From a virus (lineage: Duplodnaviria; Caudoviricetes), in IMG/VR virus record IMGVR_UViG_3300005804_000105, positions 1 through 44,125 of that record: a stretch of DNA of 44,125 nt; one strand, 5' to 3'. Of the stretch, positions 195 through 24,543 are shown in pieces. The notes beneath the pieces are model-generated. The model saw only the letters and a list, made by a program, of their open reading frames with translations. It was not told the origin of the DNA and did not search any database. A program made the position numbers and the translations under genes. Position 1 is the first letter of the stretch. Every line of letters begins with the position of its first letter.

Positions 195-1772
195 CTACCC
201 CTCAACCTCCGTCCCATCCTTAAAACAAAACCTCAAGCCCCCATCCTCCTTTACCACCACCTTCTCAAGTATAAGAGTCCAGAGCCTCTCATCAAACTCA
301 TCAAGTACCCTTTCACAACCTTCAACATCCCTAATAAACCCTTTAAGGGTATGGCTCCGGCTTTGCCTCTCACTTTTCATTTCTTCTAGTGCCGTAACCC
401 TCTTAGTCGCCTTCTCATGCCGCGCTACGTAAGCCTCATGCTGCTTTTCCCACTCGACTTGACTCATGGCTTTATGAGCATTTTCATAAACCGCTTTATT
501 CGATTCCTCGACGATGGCTGCAATCTCATCGTGAAGCTTATCAATTTCCTCGTCGATCTTGGTGTTATCGGCGAGAAGTTCAATTGCGATTTCACAGTTC
601 TTGATAAGCTCTTCCTTAACACCGAAGAGGTTGTTAAAGGCCGTTACAAATTTCTCTTTAACTTCATCTTCTGTGACATACGGGGTAGTGCATCTGTCTA
701 CCCCTTTATACTTGTCGTTACACTGCCAGATGACCTTACGGTGCTTGGTATTTGAGGCCCATACCTTAGGGCCGTAGTACCCACCACATTCACTACAGAC
801 AAGCTTAGCAGAAAGTGGGTTCTGACAGCCATTTGGCCTGCCGAGCTTTTTTCGCCTCTGGAGTTCAACCTGAACCGCTTCAAACTCATCTGGTGAGATG
901 ATGGCAGGGTGGCTGTTCTGGACGTAGTATCGTGGGGCTTCACCTTCATTGATTTTGACTTTTTTGGTAAGAAAGTCCACCGTTATTTTTTTCTGAAGTA
1001 TGGCATCGCCAGAATATTTCTCATTGGTTAAGATGGACTCAACCGTTCCAACTTGCCATCTTTTCTTGCCTGCAGGGGAGAGGATCTCTTTAGCAGTCAG
1101 GTGGCGAGCAATGTAGGAACACGTTTTTCCTTCTATAAATAAGCGGTAGATTAGCCGAACTACCTGCGCCTGGCTTTCTACAATTTTAGGTGTACCGTCT
1201 TCACCTTTTTCATAGCCGAGGAAATGCTTATAAGGCATAGTGACTTTACCATCGGCGAAACGCTTGCGGTGGCCCCATGCCACGTTTTCGGAGATTGACC
1301 TACTTTCTTCCTGCGCGATTGACGCCATCAGCGTGATAAGCAGCTCGCCCTTACTATCAAAGGTATAAATGTTTTCTTTTTCGAAGTATACCTCAACACC
1401 TTTATCCTTTAGTTTACGTATCGTAGTAAGGCTATCGACGGTGTTTCTCGCAAATCGACTAATGGATTTAGTGATGATGAGATCGATCTTACCTGCGATG
1501 GCATCATCCACCATTCTGTTAAATCCTGCTCTACCTTTTGTACTAACACCACTGATACCTTCATCAGTATAAATGCCGATAAAATCAAGATCTGGTCGCT
1601 TATCAATGTATTCAGTGTAGTAATCCACTTGGGCTTGATAAGAGTTGAGCTGTTCATCGCTGTCAGTGGAGACCCTGGCATATGCTGCGGTTCGTCTTTT
1701 AGATGGGCTGTTCAAAGGATTTGCAGTATTCTTATGAATTGTTGCAGGGTATATGATGACACTCGAAGCCAT
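195..1772 (-). CDS. Large serine recombinase (resolvase + recombinase + Zn-ribbon + coiled coil)
   Basis: AAYARVST catalytic motif, KSISRFARN, SIAQEESRSISEN, CSECG..WQC Zn ribbon. Confidence 0.95.
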   Translation of the reverse strand: MASSVIIYPATIHKNTANPLNSPSKRRTAAYARVSTDSDEQLNSYQAQVDYYTEYIDKRPDLDFIGIYTDEGISGVSTKGRAGFNRMVDDAIAGKIDLIITKSISRFARNTVDSLTTIRKLKDKGVEVYFEKENIYTFDSKGELLITLMASIAQEESRSISENVAWGHRKRFADGKVTMPYKHFLGYEKGEDGTPKIVESQAQVVRLIYRLFIEGKTCSYIARHLTAKEILSPAGKKRWQVGTVESILTNEKYSGDAILQKKITVDFLTKKVKINEGEAPRYYVQNSHPAIISPDEFEAVQVELQRRKKLGRPNGCQNPLSAKLVCSECGGYYGPKVWASNTKHRKVIWQCNDKYKGVDRCTTPYVTEDEVKEKFVTAFNNLFGVKEELIKNCEIAIELLADNTKIDEEIDKLHDEIAAIVEESNKAVYENAHKAMSQVEWEKQHEAYVARHEKATKRVTALEEMKSERQSRSHTLKGFIRDVEGCERVLDEFDERLWTLILEKVVVKEDGGLRFCFKDGTEVEG

Positions 1773-1773
1773 G

Positions 1774-3066
1774 TTAATGCCTCCTTGCTTTTAAGCGCGC
1801 AGCTTCACGCATCTGGCTTGTCCAGCTTTCGCTCCGGGATTTTTTGTGCCAGATCTTCTCTACCTTATGGCCATCCCGGAAGATAAAGACTAAGGTATGA
1901 TCTTCTTGGATCAAGATCTTAGTTATTTTTTCTTTGAAGAGATCCTCGTCAAAGTCCGCTTGGTTTAAGACCTCAGCGCTCATTTCGTAGAGCACGGAGT
2001 CTGGTATTTGCCGAGCAGGGCAGACGTCTTTACCCTTATTCAAATAGGTTGAGCATTTCCAGACTACGCTGCCACGGAGTGCTTTTCTTTTGTAATTTTT
2101 ACCGCAGTGGCCACAGACGATCATGCCGCTAAAGGGGTAGCGATTACGGTTACCAGTGATCACCTTTGAAAGACTGCGCCTCATATCGAGTATTTCTTTA
2201 GCCATTTCAAAAGTGGCTTCATCGATAATAGCTGGGTGAGTATCCCGAGCGTGGTACTTTGGTCGTTCTCCTTTATTGAGCACTAACTTTTTTTCCAAAT
2301 GGTCTTTCACAAACTTTTTCATTAGCACGGCATGCCCCGTGTATTTTTCGTTTTTGATGATCGCTATGACACTGTCAGCGGTCCACTTATCACTGCGAAG
2401 AGGGGAGATGCCCATTTTCGTCAGTTTCTTCGCGATCGTGCCGCCACCCATGCCATTAATGTAATCATCAAAAATCATACGCACTGTGTCGGCTTTTTCC
2501 GGATCAATCTCGACATTGCCATTTGAAATCCGGTATCCATACATAAACCGTAGGCCAGCCAGTTCGCCTTTTTCGAATTTCTTTCGAATCCGCCATTTAC
2601 AGTTTTCGCTCACAGAATAACTTTCAGCCTCAGCATAAGCTGCAAAAATGGTCAGCATAAGTTCACCATCGTCACTTAGTGTATTGATATTTTGCTCTTC
2701 AAAGAAGACGCCTACACCGATGTCTTTAAGTGCTCTGATGATCGTAAGTAGGTCCACCGTGTTGCGTGCAAGCCGAGAGGCGCTTTTAATTATGACAAGG
2801 TCAATACTACCGGCCTTACAATCCTCGAGAAGTCGCCTTAGTTCAGGTCGGTTATTCTTTGTGCCAGTCATAGCTTCATCTGCATAGACACCAGCGTAAA
2901 CCCAGCCAGGCTCATCCTGAATGTACTTACTGTAATGACTCACCTGGGCGGCAAGGGAATGCATCATGGCATCTTTACCTGAGGACACTCTGGCATAGGC
3001 CGCTACCCTTTTGAACTCTGGTAGTTTAGGTATAGGTCTATCTGTTCTAGTGATGATAGGTTCCAT
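1774..3066 (-). CDS. Second large serine recombinase
   Basis: AAYARVSS, SASRLARN, CGHCG..WKC Zn ribbon; RBS GGAGG upstream. Confidence 0.93.
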   Translation of the reverse strand: MEPIITRTDRPIPKLPEFKRVAAYARVSSGKDAMMHSLAAQVSHYSKYIQDEPGWVYAGVYADEAMTGTKNNRPELRRLLEDCKAGSIDLVIIKSASRLARNTVDLLTIIRALKDIGVGVFFEEQNINTLSDDGELMLTIFAAYAEAESYSVSENCKWRIRKKFEKGELAGLRFMYGYRISNGNVEIDPEKADTVRMIFDDYINGMGGGTIAKKLTKMGISPLRSDKWTADSVIAIIKNEKYTGHAVLMKKFVKDHLEKKLVLNKGERPKYHARDTHPAIIDEATFEMAKEILDMRRSLSKVITGNRNRYPFSGMIVCGHCGKNYKRKALRGSVVWKCSTYLNKGKDVCPARQIPDSVLYEMSAEVLNQADFDEDLFKEKITKILIQEDHTLVFIFRDGHKVEKIWHKKSRSESWTSQMREAARLKARRH

Positions 3067-3799: not shown

Positions 3800-4732
3800 C
3801 TATTTTGGCAGTTTCAGCTTTTGTCCAATATGGATCACATCAGATGTGAGACCATTTAGCCCCTTGATCTCGTGGCGAAGGTTGCTATCACCTAGTTTTA
3901 TCTTAGCAATTTTCCAGAGAGAATCCCCTTTGACGACCGTATAGATCTCATAATCAGGATCGTGGCTACCGATGTATAGTTTTATGCCATTTTCATCAAA
4001 AACGGAGTACCCTGGATTCTCATCAGCGCATATAATAGCGTAATGCAGTTTTCTAAAGGCGCCCTTTTGCGATTTAGCATCATTCCAGGTTTTACGAACG
4101 CGGTATAGTGGACTATTCGAAGATACGGTAGAGACGCTTAGTTTCTTTCTTACATCAGCCCGAAAGTGGTCCATGTTTTTACCGTGCTTCACAAACCAGT
4201 GCATGACATCCGCGTGATTTGATGCGATGCCCTTTTTACTTCCTTCAGAGTGGCAGAGGATGTCCTTTTCAGTAAGACCATATTTCCTGCAAAGAAAGAC
4301 GCAAAGATCTACGACGTTTTGCCATACATTATTAAAGTAGGCTTGATTCTTTTTCGCATCATAACCCGTCATCTGTAAGCCGGCAGTATAAGAAAACCCA
4401 CCAGGTTCACAGAGCTCAAGACCAATGTGGGTGTCGTTGGCTTTTCCTCCAGCATGCCATCCGCGGTGATCCCAGGGCAGATACTGCCAGATTTCTTTAT
4501 CGTCGATAAAGGCATGGACACAGACCTGACGACTCATTTCTCCTGCTTTATAGGATTTATTCCAGCGACTAAACCAGTCTCTAGCCTTCACACCCGGTTC
4601 GGCCGTTGAATGAATCATAATGCCTATAGGCGTGATCTTCTTATTTGCGAGGAAGCAGTCATTTCGGGTCATATATCGTGTTTTTAAATTATTAGGCATC
4701 AACGTCATCGTCCTCCTCACCAAACTGCTCAA
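3800..4732 (-). CDS. Endolysin: N-acetylmuramoyl-L-alanine amidase (Amidase_2) with C-terminal LysM
   Basis: IMIHSTA, GWHAG, IGLELCE, HSEG, NHAD; YTVVKGDSLWKIA...IHIGQKLKLP LysM. Start probably near 4708. Confidence 0.92.
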   Translation of the reverse strand: MSSLVRRTMTLMPNNLKTRYMTRNDCFLANKKITPIGIMIHSTAEPGVKARDWFSRWNKSYKAGEMSRQVCVHAFIDDKEIWQYLPWDHRGWHAGGKANDTHIGLELCEPGGFSYTAGLQMTGYDAKKNQAYFNNVWQNVVDLCVFLCRKYGLTEKDILCHSEGSKKGIASNHADVMHWFVKHGKNMDHFRADVRKKLSVSTVSSNSPLYRVRKTWNDAKSQKGAFRKLHYAIICADENPGYSVFDENGIKLYIGSHDPDYEIYTVVKGDSLWKIAKIKLGDSNLRHEIKGLNGLTSDVIHIGQKLKLPK

Positions 4733-11436: not shown

Positions 11437-12147
11437 TTAAGTCGTTCTTGTTGCGATCACCGTATAGGTCTTTGGCGACTTGCCCACTTCATAGACGATG
11501 ATGTCCAGGCGCTTTGAAGTCTGAGGCGAGTCAAAGCCGCTAATGGCGTTTGAGGCTAACGCGCTGGTCAGGGTCTGGAAGAACACCCCATCCACATAAA
11601 GGTCGATGGTATGGCTGGCAGCTGTGACGGTAACGGTGGTGGAGGTTGTGGTGGTCCAGGTCGAATAGTAGTTGAACTTGCCAGTGGCAAAGGTCGGCGC
11701 AATGGCACCTCCCGATAGGGTCAGCGCTGTAATGCCTGCTGATGCAACAAGGCCAAGGGTGGCAGCGCCAGTGACGCGAAGGACAATATTAGCTTCCAGG
11801 ACGTCGTTGCCAATTTCAGGACCTGGAGCTTCCATAACCAGGGCATAAAAGGTGTAGGTCGCCCCAAGAGCGGATGGAAAGGTGATGGTGTAAAGGTCTG
11901 TGGTTTGGTTCGTAAAGGCCGTTCGAATGGCGGCCTGTCCTGCATCTCCCGGATAGAAGTTGACTGTGACAGTGACACTGCCATAGTCCATGAGGCCAAG
12001 GATGAATTCTTTTGCGGTAGAAGATAGTGTCGTCACATCGATTTCATCTTTCTTTGAGTTAATTGGCGAGATTTTCTTAACTTCCCCGATGGTGGTTGCC
12101 CCGATTTTCAGGGTGGTGCTGTTACCAAGTTTTGCTTGAGAGCCCAT
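11437..12147 (-). CDS. Major tail (tube) protein with C-terminal Ig/cadherin-like extension
   Basis: DEIDVTTLSS..KEFI.GL.DYG tube motif; ~100 aa C-terminal beta domain ending KTYTVIATR. Confidence 0.87.
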   Translation of the reverse strand: MGSQAKLGNSTTLKIGATTIGEVKKISPINSKKDEIDVTTLSSTAKEFILGLMDYGSVTVTVNFYPGDAGQAAIRTAFTNQTTDLYTITFPSALGATYTFYALVMEAPGPEIGNDVLEANIVLRVTGAATLGLVASAGITALTLSGGAIAPTFATGKFNYYSTWTTTTSTTVTVTAASHTIDLYVDGVFFQTLTSALASNAISGFDSPQTSKRLDIIVYEVGKSPKTYTVIATRTT

Positions 12148-12894: not shown

Positions 12895-13467
12895 TTAAAA
12901 CCAAGTGATTCGGTACATATCATATAGTCTTCTGACAGTAATCAGTGCCCCTGGTGGTATCTCAGCATCACGATACTTATACAAAAGACCGACGTGTAAT
13001 AACAGGCCGGCCTTTAAGGTGTATGGAATTAGACTCGTGGTGCAGTTGTAACCGGACTCATACCGGATCCGAATGGGACTGACCGGATAGAGCGACTCCC
13101 CTGGCCATGATTTGTTAGGCGGCAGGACAATGCGCCCTGGAGATAGGTCATCATCGACAATGAAGTCAGCCCCTTCAGTGAGACTGGTTTCAAGGCCATC
13201 GATCGTTTTATAAATCACTGAAACTACCGACTGAAGGGGTGGCCTAGGTAGAAATATGGAGGTGCCTGATGGAAAATCGTCAAGGACAAGTTCCAGGGTC
13301 TGACTTGCCAGTGCCCTTCCGGTGTACCCTTCGGCATAGTCACGTGCGGCAAAGATCAGATCAGCCAGATAATCGTCCTCATCTGCGGTATCGATTCTGA
13401 GCTGGTCTTTTACATCGTCAATACTGATGGGTTCCTGACCCACCTGTGTTATGATTTTGAGTGCCAT
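12895..13467 (-). CDS. Head-tail connector protein (gp6-like, long form)
   Basis: EPISIDDVKDQLRID..DEDDYL..LI.AAR..AE.YTGR, LPRPPLQSV.SV.Y. Confidence 0.88.
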   Translation of the reverse strand: MALKIITQVGQEPISIDDVKDQLRIDTADEDDYLADLIFAARDYAEGYTGRALASQTLELVLDDFPSGTSIFLPRPPLQSVVSVIYKTIDGLETSLTEGADFIVDDDLSPGRIVLPPNKSWPGESLYPVSPIRIRYESGYNCTTSLIPYTLKAGLLLHVGLLYKYRDAEIPPGALITVRRLYDMYRITWF

Positions 13468-16263
13468 TTAAACCCACCGCCTTTTTATGGTTGATCGGGC
13501 TAAAATCACGGATCCTTCCAGCGTCCCTGAAAACTCATACACCACTGGGTCCGACACGCAGTCAGGAATCGTAAAGTCATAGGTATAAATCCCTGTAGCC
13601 TGGTGGACCGGAGCTGCTGTAACCAGGACGTTTTTCTTGCCGTCGTAGATGGTGATGGTTTCCCCTGAAACATCTGCCAGCGCACCACTGAAGTCGTGGA
13701 AATGGCCTATGAGTCTAATGGTGTCGCCAATATAGGCCATGATGTTTACCCCCTCAATTTCCAGAATGAGTTTACGCTCTAACGTTTCAAGATCATGACT
13801 TCTTTCTTTTATGCTGAGATGAGCGCGCGTCTTTCGTCCTATACTAAGCGCGTTTACTGCAGAAGCAATGAACTTTATAAAGTTTCGGACTCTGGAGAGT
13901 GAACCCGTCAGGAATGCGCTGGTCGTGAGCGCCAAGAAGTACAGGTTTGCACGCATCCAGATACCTGTAGCAATCAGGTCTCGAACGACAGTTTTAAAGT
14001 TTTTCTTTGTCACCAATCCTGCAGCGCTTAAAACCGAGAGAAGTGCTTTACTAAAAGCGTTTGCTTTATCGATCAAACGGATTAAATGAATAGAAGTGTT
14101 AAAGTATCTAAAGGCTTGTTTGATGGAAGTTGCGTTAATGTTGATGAAGCTGGAAAACATCCTGGAAGTATCTTTAGTCCTGAATCCAATCACTCTAGCG
14201 GTCCTGAATAAAGACACCATAGCCCGTTTTGAAATCAAATGCATCGCGGACAATCTGTCTGCGAAGAACTTTGTCGTTCGCTTTCTGGCTATTGCGGTTT
14301 GATTAAGTCCTACGCCCGCCATTTTTGAGATGTTACGTTTTATCGAAGTCGATGGCCTAGCGAAAGCACTTACTATTTTATAAGCGATTTTTGTTCGAAG
14401 TGCTGATGCATGGGTTGAGATCTGATCTGATAACCGATTGATCATCATCTTAGAATTGAACGTCTGAATCTTAATCGATGTTATGACTGTTCTTGATGTC
14501 CTCTCAAGGATTTGAATGAAGTGATTAACAGTTGAATTCAAGTTTTTATCCGTAAACTTCAAAAATGAAGCAGAGTTTCTTACGATGTTTGATACGGTTT
14601 TGAGATAGACCTTGATCCGTTCGATGACACCTGAAGCTGTAATGCTGTTTGATAAGGTCTGAATGGAGTGTTTTAATAAAGTGCCACTTGCTTGAGCGCT
14701 CCGGCTCAGGATTCGAACAATATGTGCTAAGACTGAACCACTTACCTTGATAGGTTCTGTAAGCAACCTGCTAATGTGCCGAAGATCTGAAGCGGACGCC
14801 TTTGCTGTCGAAATTATGATCTTTGAAAGACTATTTAGACGAAGCGCTGTCACAGAGGCAGATAAAGTTTTGGCTAGACCTTTAATCGCTCTTTTCATAA
14901 CGAAGGGGCTCATTCTTGTTGTTTTAATAAGGACCTGAGTGCTTCGTTTGACTGTGGTGGCACTCGCCTTGGCAAAATCTATGAAGACCCTGGACGCCAA
15001 TCGTCTTGAAAGTCCAGCTACCTTGACGATTTCAGTCAGTGATTTATTCACCGGTTTTTGAATAGTGGTCGTTAGTCGTATGCCCACTTGCCTGGCCACA
15101 CCCATAAAGTGGCGTATCGAAGCAGATGAGTTCAAGTTACTCTTTTTCACAGGTTTCACTTGTTTAACCTGAGCTCCGGTAATCCGAACACCGGCTGCTG
15201 AAGTCTTCGAAATAGTCTTATCAAATTCAAGAGAAATGAAGATGCCAGAAGTTACCCCTTTTAAATGCTGAGTGCTGGCGCTAAAAAGGATGCACTGCTC
15301 ATTACTCCACTCAGACTCCAGGCCAAAACGGATCCTTTTGATGCGGTAGCAGTACAGCACATCGCCAATCAAGTTTTCACAGTCTGTAAATTCCGTTGTA
15401 CTCTTTGTGATGCGAGCTCTGTCCACATATGCCCCAGCGCCATCTTTACGCTGTAAAATATAGCCGTCAAATTGGGATAAACTTGCACCCACAGAACCGG
15501 AGAGTGCAGAAAATACTCGGTTTATCTGATGGATGGTATAGGCTGCACTTTTTACAATATCCGCAAGGAACTTAGTCACCGGTTTTCGAAGTGAAGCAGT
15601 TAAGAGCGCAGCACCTGCCAGTGCTTTTTCGACAAAGAGGGGTTCTATAAAGGTGATTCGAATCAGCCCCGGAGCACCTGGTGCGCCTAGAATACTGCCG
15701 GATCGTCTGGACCCGCCTGCACCGCCGCCGTAAAGGCCGCCAGTGCCCCCAACACCAGTGCCGTTTGAACCATCGCCACCCGCGCCGCCATATTCACTTA
15801 CGCCAGTACCACCTGTGGCACCAGTTGCTGCATTGCCATTACCACTTGACCCAGCCGCAGATCCGCCACCACCGCCGATGGTCGTAGAGACTTTGTTTGC
15901 ACCGTTTCCGCCGCTATACTTGATGGCACCGACACCACTGGATGCCTGCCCGCCAGTGCCGCCGGTATCTGAAGTACAACCGCTTCCACCTTTAGCCAGT
16001 AACGTACTGGTGTTGACCCAGTAACTGTCACCACCTCCAGAGCCATCTGTTCCACCAGCTGCGCCCACCACATAGCCATAGTTACTCCCCGGTGTGACCG
16101 AAAAAGTGCTCTTTGAATAAGCACCTCCGCCACCACCGCCTCTTGCGTTGTTATTGGAAGGCTGGCTGGTACCGCCACCGCCGCCCCAGCACTCGACTTC
16201 AACCGATGTGACACCTGTCGGAGCCTGCCAAGTGCCACTGGTATAAAAAAGCTGAATGGTCAC
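13468..16263 (-). CDS. Large putative virion fibre protein: Gly-rich N-domain, partial FN3, 18/20-aa basic repeats, C-terminal Ig-like domain
   Basis: FYTSGTWQAPTGVTSVEVECWGGGGG Gly-rich domain; DGYILQRK..FTD..Y.YRI..ESEWSN; periodic K/R-hydrophobic-S/T repeats; RBS AAAGGAGG with GTG start. Confidence 0.75.
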   Translation of the reverse strand: MTIQLFYTSGTWQAPTGVTSVEVECWGGGGGTSQPSNNNARGGGGGGAYSKSTFSVTPGSNYGYVVGAAGGTDGSGGGDSYWVNTSTLLAKGGSGCTSDTGGTGGQASSGVGAIKYSGGNGANKVSTTIGGGGGSAAGSSGNGNAATGATGGTGVSEYGGAGGDGSNGTGVGGTGGLYGGGAGGSRRSGSILGAPGAPGLIRITFIEPLFVEKALAGAALLTASLRKPVTKFLADIVKSAAYTIHQINRVFSALSGSVGASLSQFDGYILQRKDGAGAYVDRARITKSTTEFTDCENLIGDVLYCYRIKRIRFGLESEWSNEQCILFSASTQHLKGVTSGIFISLEFDKTISKTSAAGVRITGAQVKQVKPVKKSNLNSSASIRHFMGVARQVGIRLTTTIQKPVNKSLTEIVKVAGLSRRLASRVFIDFAKASATTVKRSTQVLIKTTRMSPFVMKRAIKGLAKTLSASVTALRLNSLSKIIISTAKASASDLRHISRLLTEPIKVSGSVLAHIVRILSRSAQASGTLLKHSIQTLSNSITASGVIERIKVYLKTVSNIVRNSASFLKFTDKNLNSTVNHFIQILERTSRTVITSIKIQTFNSKMMINRLSDQISTHASALRTKIAYKIVSAFARPSTSIKRNISKMAGVGLNQTAIARKRTTKFFADRLSAMHLISKRAMVSLFRTARVIGFRTKDTSRMFSSFININATSIKQAFRYFNTSIHLIRLIDKANAFSKALLSVLSAAGLVTKKNFKTVVRDLIATGIWMRANLYFLALTTSAFLTGSLSRVRNFIKFIASAVNALSIGRKTRAHLSIKERSHDLETLERKLILEIEGVNIMAYIGDTIRLIGHFHDFSGALADVSGETITIYDGKKNVLVTAAPVHQATGIYTYDFTIPDCVSDPVVYEFSGTLEGSVILARSTIKRRWV

Positions 16264-16280
16264 TTAGCGAGACCTCCTTT

Positions 16281-17702
16281 CTAACTCCAGGTGATGTACA
16301 GGCATCCGGTGATGTTCTGGATGGCTTCCAGGACCGGTGAGGGAAGACCAGCGAGAAAGGATCCAGCTACTGTCAGTGATCTGGCTAGTATTTTACTGGT
16401 TCTTTTGGTGAGACTTCTTGTGACTTTGACTCCGGTGCTTAGTGCCTTTTGAATTGCACCAAGGATATACTCCGCACTGAAAATTGTCGAAGTTTTGATG
16501 ATTCTAGTGAAGGTCTTTATCGTTTGTCGTCTGGCCGTTCCCGATGATCTTGCAAGTTCAATCAGCGTTCGGCTAACGTAACGACGCGCTGACCTTGATG
16601 CACTTATTATTTCCGTGAGTCTTTTTCCCATCTGCCGTCGAACAGTGGCTGCAGCGCTCGCAGTTTCTAGTAGTAGTTTGTTTAGAATCCGCATCCTGTT
16701 TACGATCGCCAAGAGTCGTGTGATTTTGAGAAGTTCATTTTTACCAGCCCGTCTTCTGGCAGATCGTGTAGTTCCAATCTGATCAGACAGGTCCTTCGTA
16801 AAAAATGTTTTAGCGAAGACGTCTAAACTTGAGATCGTCGTCCCATAATCGCCGCTTTCTGTGATTTTACTGAGGTCGGACGGACTATATTTAAACACCT
16901 TGTTGGTGATGACCCCAGCGGCATAGATATAACTGCCATCGCCGGTGACGCTCTGGATATTTCCCCCATACGCAGGGCTTGTGGCAACTGTCGATAGATT
17001 TGACGGATCAAGCTTATAAATATACTGGCCGGCAGCCGCGTAAATATAACTCCCGTCTTGATAGAGACTAAAAACGGTGCTGCCTAAATTGGCGCTCTGG
17101 CTCACATAAGTTAGATCTGAGAGGTTGTACTTTCTCACGGTCTGTGTCACTTGCCCGCCGGCATAAAGGTAGGACCCAAAACAGACCGTCCCATAGATGG
17201 TTGACCCATAATTGGGACTGGTAGCGAGAACGCTTAAATCTGACGGGTCGTATTTTAAGACGTTTTGGAAAGTTGCCGTATAGAGGTAAGTGCCATCCGT
17301 TGAATAGGCTCTGGCAACATAAGAAAGCGCCGCAGATTCGCTGACTTTACTCATGTCACTCGTATCATATTTAAAGATTTTTAGGATAAACGGTCCGCAC
17401 ATGTAGTAAAAACCATTTAATAAAAATCCATATTTGGTTTGGAAAGCGCCATAGGCTAAGGTGGAAGCGACGACAGCCATATCGGAAATTCTAATTTTTT
17501 TCGCCGATTGTGTCCCAGTAGATGAATCTGCACCGGTAATATAGAGATGGGTTTCGTCATTATGAATAGACGTGATGGCACCATCGGTCGTCGTTCCATA
17601 ATTGGGGCTTTCACCGAGTTTTGTCAGCGAAGCGTCGTATTTAAAAACCTTATTGTTGGAGTAGCCGCCGCCACCAAAGATATAAACCGGCATGAACATC
17701 AT
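16281..17702 (-). CDS. Putative virion adhesin: beta-propeller (~7 blades of ~40 aa) plus 18/20-aa basic repeats
   Basis: Repeating YG.TI.S...DGSYIYAAG....V.KY..SDLS....S units; C-terminal repeats like those of 13468-16263. Confidence 0.75.
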   Translation of the reverse strand: MMFMPVYIFGGGGYSNNKVFKYDASLTKLGESPNYGTTTDGAITSIHNDETHLYITGADSSTGTQSAKKIRISDMAVVASTLAYGAFQTKYGFLLNGFYYMCGPFILKIFKYDTSDMSKVSESAALSYVARAYSTDGTYLYTATFQNVLKYDPSDLSVLATSPNYGSTIYGTVCFGSYLYAGGQVTQTVRKYNLSDLTYVSQSANLGSTVFSLYQDGSYIYAAAGQYIYKLDPSNLSTVATSPAYGGNIQSVTGDGSYIYAAGVITNKVFKYSPSDLSKITESGDYGTTISSLDVFAKTFFTKDLSDQIGTTRSARRRAGKNELLKITRLLAIVNRMRILNKLLLETASAAATVRRQMGKRLTEIISASRSARRYVSRTLIELARSSGTARRQTIKTFTRIIKTSTIFSAEYILGAIQKALSTGVKVTRSLTKRTSKILARSLTVAGSFLAGLPSPVLEAIQNITGCLYITWS

Positions 17703-17746: not shown

Positions 17747-18130
17747 TTATGCCTGGTCGTAAACGACTTTGATGGTGAACTGGATGGAATCGCCGACGCT
17801 GACGTTGATGGGATCAAAGGTCGCCCGAAGGTAAAGGTTACCCGAGGTGCTGGCATCAAAGAGGCCGGCTTCCGTGATGGCTGCACTGGTACTGGCAGCG
17901 GTCAGCGTCCCGATGACCTGATAGGTGTCACTCGTTGTATTGGTGGTTTGTTGAGTCGAGGTGCCGCTCACTCTGGCTTCTGCTCTGGGTGTTACGAGTG
18001 CAGTATTGGCTTCAGCGGCTACCGTGACGCCTGTACCCCAGTGGACCCAGTTGGGTTCGGTCCCGCTGCCTTTGATTCGGTTGGTCGTGATGGCCAGACC
18101 ATTATTGGTGACAACGACAACATCAACCAT
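17747..18130 (-). CDS. Small structural protein resembling the phage tail-collar fibre domain (candidate fibre subunit)
   Basis: VTNNGL..GTG.T.A....TAL..ITEAGLFDA...GNL..R..F..INV..GDSIQFT. Confidence 0.75.
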   Translation of the reverse strand: MVDVVVVTNNGLAITTNRIKGSGTEPNWVHWGTGVTVAAEANTALVTPRAEARVSGTSTQQTTNTTSDTYQVIGTLTAASTSAAITEAGLFDASTSGNLYLRATFDPINVSVGDSIQFTIKVVYDQA

Positions 18131-18552: not shown

Positions 18553-19752
18553 CTACGCATGCTGCTGAAGCACTTTGATCGCTTCAGAGAGAATGAGTTT
18601 ACCATCGACGCGCTGAGTGGCTTTAAATCCAACCTGACCTGTCACGGCAAAAAGTTCATTGAGTCGCTGGAAGGACCGACCCTGACGATCGGCGATCCAG
18701 TAGTAGGAGAAGTCACCAAAGGCAACGGTTTTGGCAGTGGCGGCTATTGTCGGCACAAAGTAGGAGGTTTTCACCGGTTTATTGAGGATGGTGTCTGGTT
18801 CGCCGACTCTTACAGATGGCTGCCACAGGTACAGTCCATTACCGTCTTTAAGCTTTCTGATCTCTTTGATGGTGGCATCATTGGTGATAAACATCGCATT
18901 TTTTCTGTAAGGTGATTTCAGAGAATAGTAGAGGTCGATCAGTTCATCGAACTTAATCGAGCCTGCAAGGGCACTTGTAACGCCCACGTCGGCCCCACCT
19001 GTGGTGTTAAAGATCCCTACCGGCTTACCGGTGCCGTTGCCGGTAAAGAAGGCTTCTTCCTCTTTCGTACCGATCCTGCGGGCGAATTCCTTCGCGATAT
19101 AGGCCTGAAGGTTAAAGATACTGTCATTCAGCAGTTCTTCAGAGACTTTGATGATGGTCCCGAGCTTATGCGCCCCCAGGGAGACCTGGCCAAAGGCATC
19201 ATCGGACTCTGGAATTGGGGCTTCTTCATCCACCCAGGAGGCTGTGCCTTTTGAGGCCACCACTGGAATCTTACGATCACCTGAGGAGGTGCGAATGACC
19301 GTTGCCAGGCTTCTAAAGATGTTTTCTTCAAGAAGCGCTTCAATCAGCGTCGCTTCGAATTCATCCGGCACGAGGTAGCCGCCTTCAGAGTCTGTGCCGA
19401 CCTGGAGGGCGTTCTGGACGTCAAAACTGTTTTTATCCTTCATCGCACGCCAGAAAGCGGACTTGTATTCATCACTGGCGCGGCCTGTTTTTTCTTTTCT
19501 TTGCCGTTCAGGTCGAGAGGTAATCGGATCCGTAACCGGTTTTGATAGCTCCATTTCGATTTGTTGCTGACGCTCCAGTCGCTCGATTTCTTTACCGAGA
19601 TTAACGACGTCCGCTTCCATCTTTTCATAAATGACTGCATCATCTTTCGAAATCTGGCCGGACTCATCGCGCTTTGTGTCAAGGAAGGCCTTGGCCTCTT
19701 CCCATACTTTTGCCCGTTTTTCTCTGAGTTCTAAAGTTTTATTCATGCACAT
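18553..19752 (-). CDS. Major capsid protein, HK97 fold
   Basis: Coiled-coil delta domain; GTDSEGGYLVPDEF, KVSEELLNDS, FGDFSYY, RVDGKL. Confidence 0.96.
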   Translation of the reverse strand: MCMNKTLELREKRAKVWEEAKAFLDTKRDESGQISKDDAVIYEKMEADVVNLGKEIERLERQQQIEMELSKPVTDPITSRPERQRKEKTGRASDEYKSAFWRAMKDKNSFDVQNALQVGTDSEGGYLVPDEFEATLIEALLEENIFRSLATVIRTSSGDRKIPVVASKGTASWVDEEAPIPESDDAFGQVSLGAHKLGTIIKVSEELLNDSIFNLQAYIAKEFARRIGTKEEEAFFTGNGTGKPVGIFNTTGGADVGVTSALAGSIKFDELIDLYYSLKSPYRKNAMFITNDATIKEIRKLKDGNGLYLWQPSVRVGEPDTILNKPVKTSYFVPTIAATAKTVAFGDFSYYWIADRQGRSFQRLNELFAVTGQVGFKATQRVDGKLILSEAIKVLQQHA

Positions 19753-21891: not shown

Positions 21892-24543
21892 CTATATACT
21901 CAAAATGCCTCGAACATCGTAGACACTTCCATCAACATTGCTTCCACATCTTAATGCTCTATCTAGTGCCATAATTGTTGCTACAGCACCGTCAATGCGT
22001 TCGGTGCTTTTTTCTTTGTCCGGCTTAACGTTACCCGCTGGATCAGTCTTGATGAAGATATTGTCCATCATCCATCGGAGGACAGGATGGCCCCCGTGTG
22101 CTATCTTTTCTTCAAGGGTTAATTTCATCAGTTCCTTAGTTGGCGGAGACATATCCTTGAAACCTTGACCAAAGGGGACAACAGTAAATCCGAGACCCTC
22201 CAGGTTCTGAACCATCTGCACCGCGCCCCAGCGATCAAAGGCAATCTCGCGAATGTTATACTGCTCGCCAAGGCTTTCAATGAACTTCTCAATGAATCCA
22301 TAGTGGACTACATTACCTTCAGTGGTCAGCAGAAACCCTTGCTTCTCCCATAGATCATACTGAACATGGTCCCGCCGTACCCGAAGAGCGATATTATCTT
22401 CCGGCATCCAGAAGAAGGGGAGAACCTGAAATTTATCGTTCTCATCCACCGGAGGGAAGACCAGCACAAAGGCAGTGATATCTGTAGTGGAGGAGAGGTC
22501 AAGACCGCCATAACAGACACGGCCCTCTAGATCATTAGGTGAAATAGGGAATGCACAGGCATCCCACCTGGCCATTGGCATCCAGCGCACAGCCTGTTTG
22601 ACCCACTGGTTTAATCTAAGCTGACGAAAGCTATTTTCTTCAGACGGTGTTTGCTTTGCAGATTCAAAGGCAGCTCTCACTTTATCGATACCGACTGTAA
22701 TTCCAAGGCTGGGATTGGCTTTCTTCCATACCTTTGGGTCCGTCCAGTCCTCATCTTCTTTCGCACCATAAATGACAGGGTAGAAGGTGGGGTCGCGTTT
22801 TCGGCCTTCCAGGATGTCGAGAGCTTTTTGATGTGTTTCGAAGCAGATGCTATTTTGATCGGTGCCAGCTGTCGTGATCAGAAAAAATAACGGCTGTGTC
22901 CGAGCATCACCAGAACCTTTCGTCATGACATCAAAAAGCTTTCGGTTGGGCTGGGTATGCAGCTCATCAAAGACAACGCCATGAATGTTAAAGCCGTGCT
23001 TTGAGTAAGCTTCAGCGGATAGGACTTGATAAAAGCTATTTGTCGGTAGATAAATGATCCTTTTAGTAGAAGCAAGAATCTTGACCCGGCGATTAAGCGC
23101 AGGACACATGCGGACCATATCGGCTGCAACTTCAAAGACAATGGATGCCTGCTGGCGATCTGCGGCACATCCATAGACTTCTGCGCGCTCTTCACCATCA
23201 CCACAGGTGAGCAGCAGGGCAATAGCTGCGGCAAGCTCACTGTTATGTGTTGGCAAAAAAGAACGCCCTATTAAATATTGATGAGATGGACTGTCAACTT
23301 GTATGCACTGCATACCTCGATTTTCAATAGGTTCTATTTTATCAATGTATCTAAAATGACTTCTTGTTCTTTTATTTCGCCTTACATCATTTTTCTGTTT
23401 TCTTTGTAGTCCGAAAATTATCGTATCGTCAAAGGCAGTGAACCGCACATAATATAAAGTTCTACCTGTTGGACTTCTACCACATTCAGAACTCTTCTTT
23501 GACCAATCATTGCGCTGCGTTGATACCGCCTCAGAAATAGCATTTTTGATTCCGAGACTCCACAACAATTCACTGACGCTTTCGGATAAGGCTTTCTCCG
23601 TAGAACAATAACTTGCTTGACCTTGATCTTTGCAAATAGTTCCATCAGAATCCATCAAACCTTGTAATAGTCTGAGCCTATCTTGTTTGCTTGCACGTAG
23701 ATATTCAATTGGTATGACCTTATCGAGAAAACTATTCAGTAAAACCTGTTTCAAAGCAGGTATTCTAACTACGATGCTATCTCCAGTGTTCTCCCATGCG
23801 TTTGACACCTCATAGAAGCAAATAATATTTTTTAGAACACCAGCAATATCCTCGGTTTTGATTGTTATCTCTGGCTTTACAGCATTTCCATTTCCAAGCC
23901 AATATCCCATTAGGTATGGCTCTATTGGAAGTTTAGCAGAATCAACATTAATGTATTGTGCAATTGGTATTCTGAAACGAAATGAGTTGCCCTCTTTAGG
24001 TAATCGATAAAGTTCGCCTGTGGTCATAATACATTTTTTAGTCTTACCCCTTGTATACTCACCTTGCCACTCGTGATTTTCACCCGCCTCAATAACTTCT
24101 CCGTCCTTAAATGTGATTCTATAAGCTTGTTCGTCATAATCGACTTTACTTTTTGCTACAACGTGACACGTGTTTCCTTTTTCATCAAATAAAGCATCCC
24201 CCACTTTAATTTCTCCCATAGTCGCATAACCTTTAGGTGTGGGAATAATCGTGTCTAATGCTACTTGTTTGCCCATTTTCTTTGGGATCTCAATATATGC
24301 CGTATTAAACTGTCTATAGCCACTTGGCTTAAGGACACCGAATAGGTCCCTTACGATTTGTTCCTGCCAGTCGATGAGTTCAAAGGGCTTACCTGCCCAG
24401 CTGCCTTTGGTATGGGAAAGCGCTTCGATGAATGCAACCGCATAGTTGGCAGCATCTTTGTCGTAAGTACTGTCACTCGCCATAAAGCTGGTAGGTTTAA
24501 ATTTCTTCAACTTACGCATCGGTTGAAAAGCGCTCCTTTCCAA
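21892..24543 (-). CDS. terL: Terminase large subunit containing an intein
   Basis: EIPKKMGK/SELAA Walker A interrupted; VVFDELH Walker B; GGLDLSS nuclease; IDGAVA. Start probably ATG at 24519. Confidence 0.96.
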   Translation of the reverse strand: MERSAFQPMRKLKKFKPTSFMASDSTYDKDAANYAVAFIEALSHTKGSWAGKPFELIDWQEQIVRDLFGVLKPSGYRQFNTAYIEIPKKMGKQVALDTIIPTPKGYATMGEIKVGDALFDEKGNTCHVVAKSKVDYDEQAYRITFKDGEVIEAGENHEWQGEYTRGKTKKCIMTTGELYRLPKEGNSFRFRIPIAQYINVDSAKLPIEPYLMGYWLGNGNAVKPEITIKTEDIAGVLKNIICFYEVSNAWENTGDSIVVRIPALKQVLLNSFLDKVIPIEYLRASKQDRLRLLQGLMDSDGTICKDQGQASYCSTEKALSESVSELLWSLGIKNAISEAVSTQRNDWSKKSSECGRSPTGRTLYYVRFTAFDDTIIFGLQRKQKNDVRRNKRTRSHFRYIDKIEPIENRGMQCIQVDSPSHQYLIGRSFLPTHNSELAAAIALLLTCGDGEERAEVYGCAADRQQASIVFEVAADMVRMCPALNRRVKILASTKRIIYLPTNSFYQVLSAEAYSKHGFNIHGVVFDELHTQPNRKLFDVMTKGSGDARTQPLFFLITTAGTDQNSICFETHQKALDILEGRKRDPTFYPVIYGAKEDEDWTDPKVWKKANPSLGITVGIDKVRAAFESAKQTPSEENSFRQLRLNQWVKQAVRWMPMARWDACAFPISPNDLEGRVCYGGLDLSSTTDITAFVLVFPPVDENDKFQVLPFFWMPEDNIALRVRRDHVQYDLWEKQGFLLTTEGNVVHYGFIEKFIESLGEQYNIREIAFDRWGAVQMVQNLEGLGFTVVPFGQGFKDMSPPTKELMKLTLEEKIAHGGHPVLRWMMDNIFIKTDPAGNVKPDKEKSTERIDGAVATIMALDRALRCGSNVDGSVYDVRGILSI
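23242..24267 (-). mobile_element. 342-aa class 3 intein with LAGLIDADG endonuclease domain
   Basis: Starts QVALDTIIPTP, ends LPTHN before Ser+1; NHEW, MQCIQV and PTHN give the W-C-T triplet; LMGYWLGNG and LQGLMDSDG motifs. Confidence 0.92.

Follow-up and report, generated by a model that had tools for sequence, protein, structure and literature searches.

A fibronectin type III domain divided between two adjacent phage proteins: a probable branch point in a bead-coated rope fibre

According to the crystal structure reported in 2016, a 25-residue hairpin at the C-terminus of BppU of phage Tuc2009 completes the sheet of the 57-residue C-terminal sandwich of BppA, and the resulting composite is described as resembling a titin domain (PMC4742702). 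Fibres of a different kind have been reported for GP4 and A1002, where dimers of the gp80 fold are threaded on a rope protein by beta-augmentation, with 11 dimers along about 300 Å of rope in the case of A1002 (PMC13730344). Here we describe a locus that resembles both. It is located in IMG/VR virus record IMGVR_UViG_3300005804_000105, of which positions 1 to 44,125 were analysed (44,125 nucleotides, referred to as the window), and it consists of two adjacent genes on the minus strand, B and A, which seem to share one fibronectin type III (FN3) domain: protein B ends in a segment resembling the strands A-B (the tag), and protein A contains the strands C-G (the catcher). Based on sequence comparisons, we consider it highly probable that the tag docks in the catcher. 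For the whole reading, in which this joint is the branch point of a bead-coated rope fibre, we estimate a probability of about 0.7. The docking is well supported because both halves are conserved, tag and catcher co-occur and a solved precedent exists; BppU/BppA makes the docking more credible and at the same time lowers its novelty.

The catcher is part of the 931-amino acid (aa) protein A (13468..16263, minus strand, according to the list of open reading frames (ORFs)), which is composed of a tip, a short rope, the FN3 half, a long rope and an immunoglobulin-like (Ig-like) C-terminal domain. It comprises 63 residues (aa 265-327; 15283..15471, minus strand), including Cys295 (15379-15381), Cys305 and Cys324. 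An FN3 profile of 87 positions, which was built from 86 intact domains and from which the rope-type proteins P0086, P0122 and P0071 were left out, matched this segment at positions 24-84 with 53 bits, and positions 1-23 found no match in A, which confirms the original prediction that the 931-aa protein carries strands C-G without strands A-B. The segment was also recognized by hhalign, at a probability of 99% and over columns 29-87 of a 90-column template, the conserved Tyr/Leu/Tyr core of strands C-G is present, and the matches in the PDB were titin FN3, 3MPC and FN3con (E 5e-6 to 6e-4). Strands A-B with the core Trp are missing from the same chain, as positions 1-22 were unmatched in 12 of 12 hits and no Trp is found upstream. 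All 12 hits of the profile across 108 sources (duplicates included) begin at position 23-26 of 87; in 142 ordinary FN3 proteins, 1387 of the 1416 domains begin no later than position 12, and 11 begin no earlier than position 20. A profile search with residues 205-360 of A (window plus L001, a related locus) against 1.84 billion proteins retrieved mostly proteins with multiple FN3 domains, which matched from about column 60, i.e. from the beginning of the catcher segment quoted in the prediction. Pfam returned only a sub-threshold FN3 hit (Interfer-bind, E 0.08), no match to the catcher was obtained among 50,697 annotated phage records, and nothing was found in initial metagenome and genome scans. 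An AlphaFold2 single-chain model of residues 205-360, made from two sequences, displayed the five catcher strands and an upstream helix at a pLDDT of 45.7, which is too weak to count.

The tag forms the end of the 473-aa protein B (16281..17702, minus strand; ORF list), which consists of a tip, a rope and the C-terminal tag itself (aa 452-473; 16281..16349, minus strand), with Cys467 (16302-16304) and Trp472 before the stop codon. The stretch quoted in the prediction, aa 454-473, was confirmed at 16281-16343. A Leu, an Ala, two aliphatic residues and the Trp of the tag sit in the FN3 register. When five core positions, which were picked after the tags had been seen, were scored, the five tags known to us took ranks 1-5 of 500 C-termini with 11.6-15.3 bits, the next C-terminus reaching 2.9 bits, and the score of the L093 tag on the A-B matrix, 14.6 bits and the highest among 500, is comparable to that of an intact domain. 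A strand-B motif, also written after the tags had been seen, ends 11 of 888 complete ORFs (only plus-strand ORFs of at least 150 aa, from the 108 sources with duplicates), and all 11, which represent five distinct loci, are located directly upstream of a half-FN3 gene. An initial A-B matrix applied to the six frames of the window placed the tag 9th among 1037 Trp sites with 1.6 bits, which is not significant, and a tag profile matched nothing relevant in the PDB.

The same split was found in five distinct loci, i.e. the window, L001, L088, L093 and L094, the last being a prophage of Acidaminobacter hydrogenoformans (also L106). L001 contains the same two genes; compared with the window, its tag is 86% identical (19 of 22 residues) and its catcher 81%, versus 37-55% for the ropes, and synonymous changes are found in 56% (tag) and 42% (catcher) of the conserved codons. 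Across the tag/catcher comparisons, synonymous sites differ in 42-64% of the conserved codons. The tags of L088 and L094 agree in 21 of 22 residues and their catchers are 69% identical, with unrelated tips on both genes, the tip content of L094 being DUF2341 plus laminin G. In L093 the catcher is divergent, and a likely propeller runs straight into the tag. Four loci with the same C-terminal domain as A (L092, L095, L097 and L103) have one rope gene, without FN3 and without the tag gene. In each of the 9 distinct loci with upstream DNA read, tag and catcher were either both present or both absent; this count leaves out L104 and L107, which match the anchor only weakly and in part, and L089 and L096 are cut upstream. 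Half-domains without a visible partner occur in P0122, P0071 (three) and L113; no locus was found for P0122, in which Ser replaces the catcher Cys, and no gene context for P0071. The latter is a period-22 repeat protein, two of its three FN3 half-domains are arranged in tandem, and it possibly represents a multi-branch form. From the comparison of these sequences we conclude that the split FN3 domain is a real feature under selection and that the tip domains attached to it have been exchanged between loci.

Both halves had been predicted to carry cysteines that are rare in the repeat regions, and indeed the repeat regions contain none: the cysteines of A are located at 25, 96, 295, 305, 324 and 902, those of B at 102, 174 and 467. 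The disulfide lock suggested along with them would suit one pair only. In 1384 intact FN3 domains the top long-range coupling connects column 64 with column 83, where A has C305 and C324, respectively (F-G pair), and Cys is present at both columns in 11 of the 86 intact domains. Since this pair matches the top coupling and recurs in intact FN3 domains, C305-C324 is likely an ordinary intrachain pair. C467 of the tag (Trp-5) falls on column 13 and C295 of the catcher (after the strand-E Asp) on column 55; the coupling 15-53 ranks 9 of 3403, and the antiparallel register set by it places column 13 opposite column 55. A Cys at column 13 or 55 was found in 0 of the 1384 intact domains, and the equivalents of C467 and C295 are both present in four of the split loci and both absent from L093. 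Only C467 and C295 would fit an interchain bond, and we slightly favor a disulfide between these two residues, which would form by oxidation after lysis.

The catcher is flanked by repeats on both sides. In A, a short rope of about three repeats without Trp (aa 205-264; 15472..15651, minus strand) is 37% identical to that of L001, has a period of 18 that 4 of 300 shuffles reach and scores -6.9 on the A-B matrix, and the long rope, or stem (aa 331-815; 13819..15273, minus strand), contains about 27 repeats of 18 residues, a periodicity reached by 0 of 300 shuffles. The rope of B (aa 297-451; 16350..16814, minus strand) consists of about nine repeats of 18 residues (again 0 of 300 shuffles) and resembles the long rope of A (BLASTP E 2e-9). 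The prediction had overlooked the nearby gene for a 127-aa protein (17747..18130, minus strand), a GP4 gp80-like member of the bead family, for which PF23140 (Gp80) exceeded the gathering cut-off (E 2.4e-6, 28.3 bits vs 27) and the closest PDB sequence match, 8jou_a, was weak (E 0.05-0.13). The 18-residue period of A and B also occurs in genes adjoining many other bead genes. In environmental phages (viral contigs L005-L087), gp80-like bead genes are commonly accompanied by rope genes of period 18 and by Gp77-like genes. Because 18-residue repeats flank the catcher and a gp80-like gene is adjacent, a bead-on-rope fibre is indicated; by analogy, the products of the 127-aa gene most likely coat a rope of the GP4 type, and they are predicted to sit on the ropes as dimers. 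In such a fibre, a joint with rope on both sides of the catcher would be a branch point. Trans-complementation at a branch point, as originally proposed, is backed by conservation, co-occurrence and the solved precedent, and the picture of the fibre would change to that of a bead-coated rope. With one dimer per repeat, a figure derived from the approximately 20-24 residues per dimer in A1002, the stem would be about 70 nm long with about 27 beads, and there would be about 3 beads on one arm and about 9 on the other.

The C-terminal 90 aa of A (13471..13740, minus strand) likely serve as the virion anchor. AlphaFold2 predicted an Ig-like domain with seven strands (pLDDT 87.6), the fold matches of which are generic only (best VIA Z 8.9, root-mean-square deviation 2.0, 87 residues aligned, macroglobulin domains). 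L103 and L113 encode the domain as a gene of its own, and of 401 genomes from the order to which G001 belongs, one contained a match, which was already known. Neither Pfam Gp77 nor a local Gp77-like profile gave a hit, and a candidate assignment as a Gp77 homologue found no support, with the profiles unmatched and the fold generically Ig-like. Since gene A abuts the gene of the head-tail adaptor (12895..13467, minus strand; Pfam Phage_connect_1; phrog_442, E 2.6e-24), which follows downstream, A is likely attached near the neck or head via its C-terminal domain, and we regard an anchoring of the bead-coated rope by this domain in the head/neck region as probable. A stand-alone relative lies between Ig-like and lectin genes in Bacillus phage Kirov (L108 6983-7267) and in other Tsamsa-like phages. 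A Shine-Dalgarno-like run precedes Met842 of A (window 13740-13760, minus strand), with similar purine runs in L001, L088 and L094. Given that the two loci named above have a separate gene for the domain, an internal start in A might additionally yield the 90-aa domain as a free protein.

We propose that the C-terminal domain anchors A to the virion, that beads coat the ropes and that the last 20 residues of B would fold into the five-strand half-domain of A, thereby completing the FN3 domain. This would result in a fork, in which a stem of about 27 repeats leads into an arm of three repeats with a glycine-rich tip and an arm of nine repeats with a propeller tip. The former tip is a glycine-rich domain (aa 1-204 of A; 15652..16263, minus strand; Pfam PF21722 Gly_rich_2, E 4.7e-9; phrog_863, tail category, E 4.6e-10). 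The latter is likely a beta-propeller (aa 4-296 of B; 16815..17693, minus strand), as judged from sub-threshold WD40/Kelch matches in Pfam and from Atlas feature matches of 0.88-0.91, those with names being propeller-type clusters. Translation of B probably starts at Met4 (17693), and a 470-aa form of B is present in the protein collection. Both tips presumably act as adhesins or receptor binders. The arrangement could have originated from one rope gene, when a stop, a start, a new tip and a short rope were inserted in the B-C loop of its FN3 domain; an old insertion at this site is suggested because the gene order fits. More tentatively, the joint might be a module for disulfide-locked branching, with a catcher insertable anywhere in a rope, into which any protein with the 20-residue tag could plug, so that arms and tips would be swapped independently. 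If this holds, forked or multiply branched fibres would be expected, and a natural tag/catcher pair would be available for protein engineering.

Several observations weigh against this proposal or parts of it. Taken alone, the tag of the window reached an hhalign probability of 0.6% against FN3 (E 0.09, with just LYITW aligned), and on the full A-B matrix it scored -0.5 bits and ranked 15th of 500 distinct C-termini, compared with a median of 22.8 bits for intact domains; on these scores the claimed resemblance of the 473-aa C-terminus to strands A-B is weak, but its core positions are in register, and with the tie of the motif to half-FN3 genes the likeness exceeds chance. In L113, where the upstream gene is cut off, the profile match reaches position 6 across a Trp-less rope repeat, and this half-domain might be self-completed. 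The search of homologous loci revealed no contiguous FN3 embedded in a rope as an ancestral form, and by sequence the rope did not match that of GP4 in the PDB. Regarding the disulfide, the direct coupling 13-55 ranks just 267 of 3403, the cysteine pattern reflects two lineages, one with and one without the pair, and no independent events, and in the likely anaerobic hosts the bond may not form.

Some of these points would suit a half-domain that is completed in another way, by its own rope repeat, a strand of a bead or a second copy of A, while the tag binds another partner. Ropes are reported to donate beta-strands in GP4-type fibres (PMC13730344), and both the L113 match over a rope repeat and the poor score of the window tag relative to intact A-B strands are compatible with this idea; however, the segments upstream of the half-domain lack the core Trp, are only 33-37% conserved and score -0.6 to -7.8 in six of six proteins, and they would not account for the joint appearance and loss of tag and catcher, which makes this explanation unlikely. 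It is also conceivable that the docking is non-covalent or optional, with the cysteines serving in packing or metal binding and with B attached in sub-stoichiometric amounts as an accessory adhesin, and not as a fixed second arm, in the manner of BppA, which has been reported as enhancing and non-essential (PMC9692632). The split without cysteines in L093 and the single rope gene of related phages point in this direction, but a Cys invariant at both columns in four loci and absent from the intact domains argues against non-covalent docking, and we consider this alternative quite improbable. The order of the genes, with A-B before C-G, would suit a contiguous gene as well, the halves being fused to a single chain if the approximately 810 bases between them were deleted from the DNA, spliced out or bypassed by the ribosome. 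Yet there is neither a repeat at the junctions, as stated in the prediction, nor an Rfam match, and the DNA that would be skipped, which varies between loci, codes for a conserved tip domain and includes a ribosome-binding site for it. Moreover, the contigs of four sequencing runs contain no joint; the region is covered by only one of them, possibly the source of the window itself, where it was assembled as one contig at a depth of 136, and runs X2-X4 cover small pieces only. Such a fusion is very improbable, and the same is true for a relic, in which an insertion into the B-C loop, again compatible with the gene order, broke one gene and left decaying halves, since in five loci the halves are the most conserved parts of the genes despite synonymous divergence, a selection pattern that contradicts decay. 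Docking of the tag in the catcher is the reading we prefer.

The window represents a temperate long-tailed phage, with genes for terminase, portal, protease, capsid, head-tail, tail and lysis functions and two serine recombinases (Pfam, PHROGs). Between the gene of the major capsid protein (18553..19752, minus strand; Pfam Phage_capsid, E 6e-87), located upstream, and that of the head-tail adaptor, the minus strand encodes a 73-aa protein, the 127-aa protein, B and A. The nearest named relative of this fibre module is the prophage of A. hydrogenoformans (Clostridia), which makes an anaerobic Bacillota host likely. In L001 and L088 the module follows a portal/protease/capsid set unlike that of the window, which suggests that it moves as a cassette. 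Small extra genes lie between bead and rope genes in L093 (3469-4050) and in L092, L095 and L097 (about 4180-4604); one product has a CBM5/12 domain, and another is a 140-aa protein of unknown family. Elsewhere in the window, the large terminase (21892-24543) is interrupted by a segment that contains a LAGLIDADG domain and probably represents an intein (Pfam), two large serine recombinase genes are neighbors (195-3066; Pfam, PHROGs), and the tail tube protein (11437-12147) extends about 100 residues past its Pfam tube match.

Branched receptor-binding devices broaden the attachment range of phages, and the locus suggests a minimal genetic path to branching, for which a single FN3 domain would have to acquire a stop codon and a new start in its B-C loop. 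Bead-on-rope fibres of the GP4 type would then also occur in temperate phages with long tails, the hosts of which are likely anaerobic Bacillota, and the Tuc2009 joint would be identified as a reusable device instead of a one-off. A tag of 22 and a catcher of 63 residues are cheap to test, and the same tag/catcher pair is encoded by a prophage of A. hydrogenoformans DSM 2784, a strain that is in culture.

In donor-strand complementation (chaperone-usher and type V pili) and in SpyTag/SpyCatcher, a second chain supplies what an incomplete Ig-like fold lacks. In contrast to these systems, two strands would be donated here at a single branch joint without formation of a polymer, and there is no sign of a chaperone, a protease or isopeptide chemistry. 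As in the chain-like fibres of GP4, VP1 and A1002, a gp80-family bead gene adjoins genes with long regular repeats, and the nozzle of A1002 is reported to be likewise split between two proteins (PMC13730344). Those fibres are, however, unbranched and belong to podophage tails, whereas the present locus encodes two ropes, a split-FN3 joint and variable tips in a long-tailed temperate phage. The bead-chain neck fibres of A-1(L) were rejected as a model, being of a different architecture that is reported to be built of trimers (PMC10966104).

The closest system is Tuc2009. In its genome record, the end of BppU matches FN3 positions 1-20 and the end of BppA positions 51-86 in the same gene order (weakly, with 1.3 and 6.3 bits), and on the basis of this alignment BppU/BppA is an FN3 domain split at the same B-C loop. 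In both cases the upstream gene stops just after strand B and the next gene holds strands C-G, and the Tuc2009 joint hangs an accessory adhesin on the virion. Direct similarity of the halves to BppU and BppA is negligible (hhalign 1.0% and 0.2%), and neither protein A nor B belongs to the BppU/BppA families in Pfam or PHROGs. The original prediction regarded the pair as undescribed, which cannot be upheld given that the Tuc2009 structure is already solved with a split at this loop (PMC4742702). A split-FN3 branch in a rope fibre was not found described in the literature searched, which covered few subscription papers and no supplements. In Tuc2009, the catcher is C-terminal and belongs to an accessory protein of the baseplate; here it is internal, flanked by rope and part of the likely anchored protein, which would give a fork, and it is encoded in a bead-on-rope module next to the capsid gene, between capsid and adaptor, together with a cysteine pair. 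The principle of a natural tag/catcher pair is thus already demonstrated by BppU/BppA, and the new features here are the position of the catcher inside a protein, the setting in a rope fibre and the pair of cysteines.

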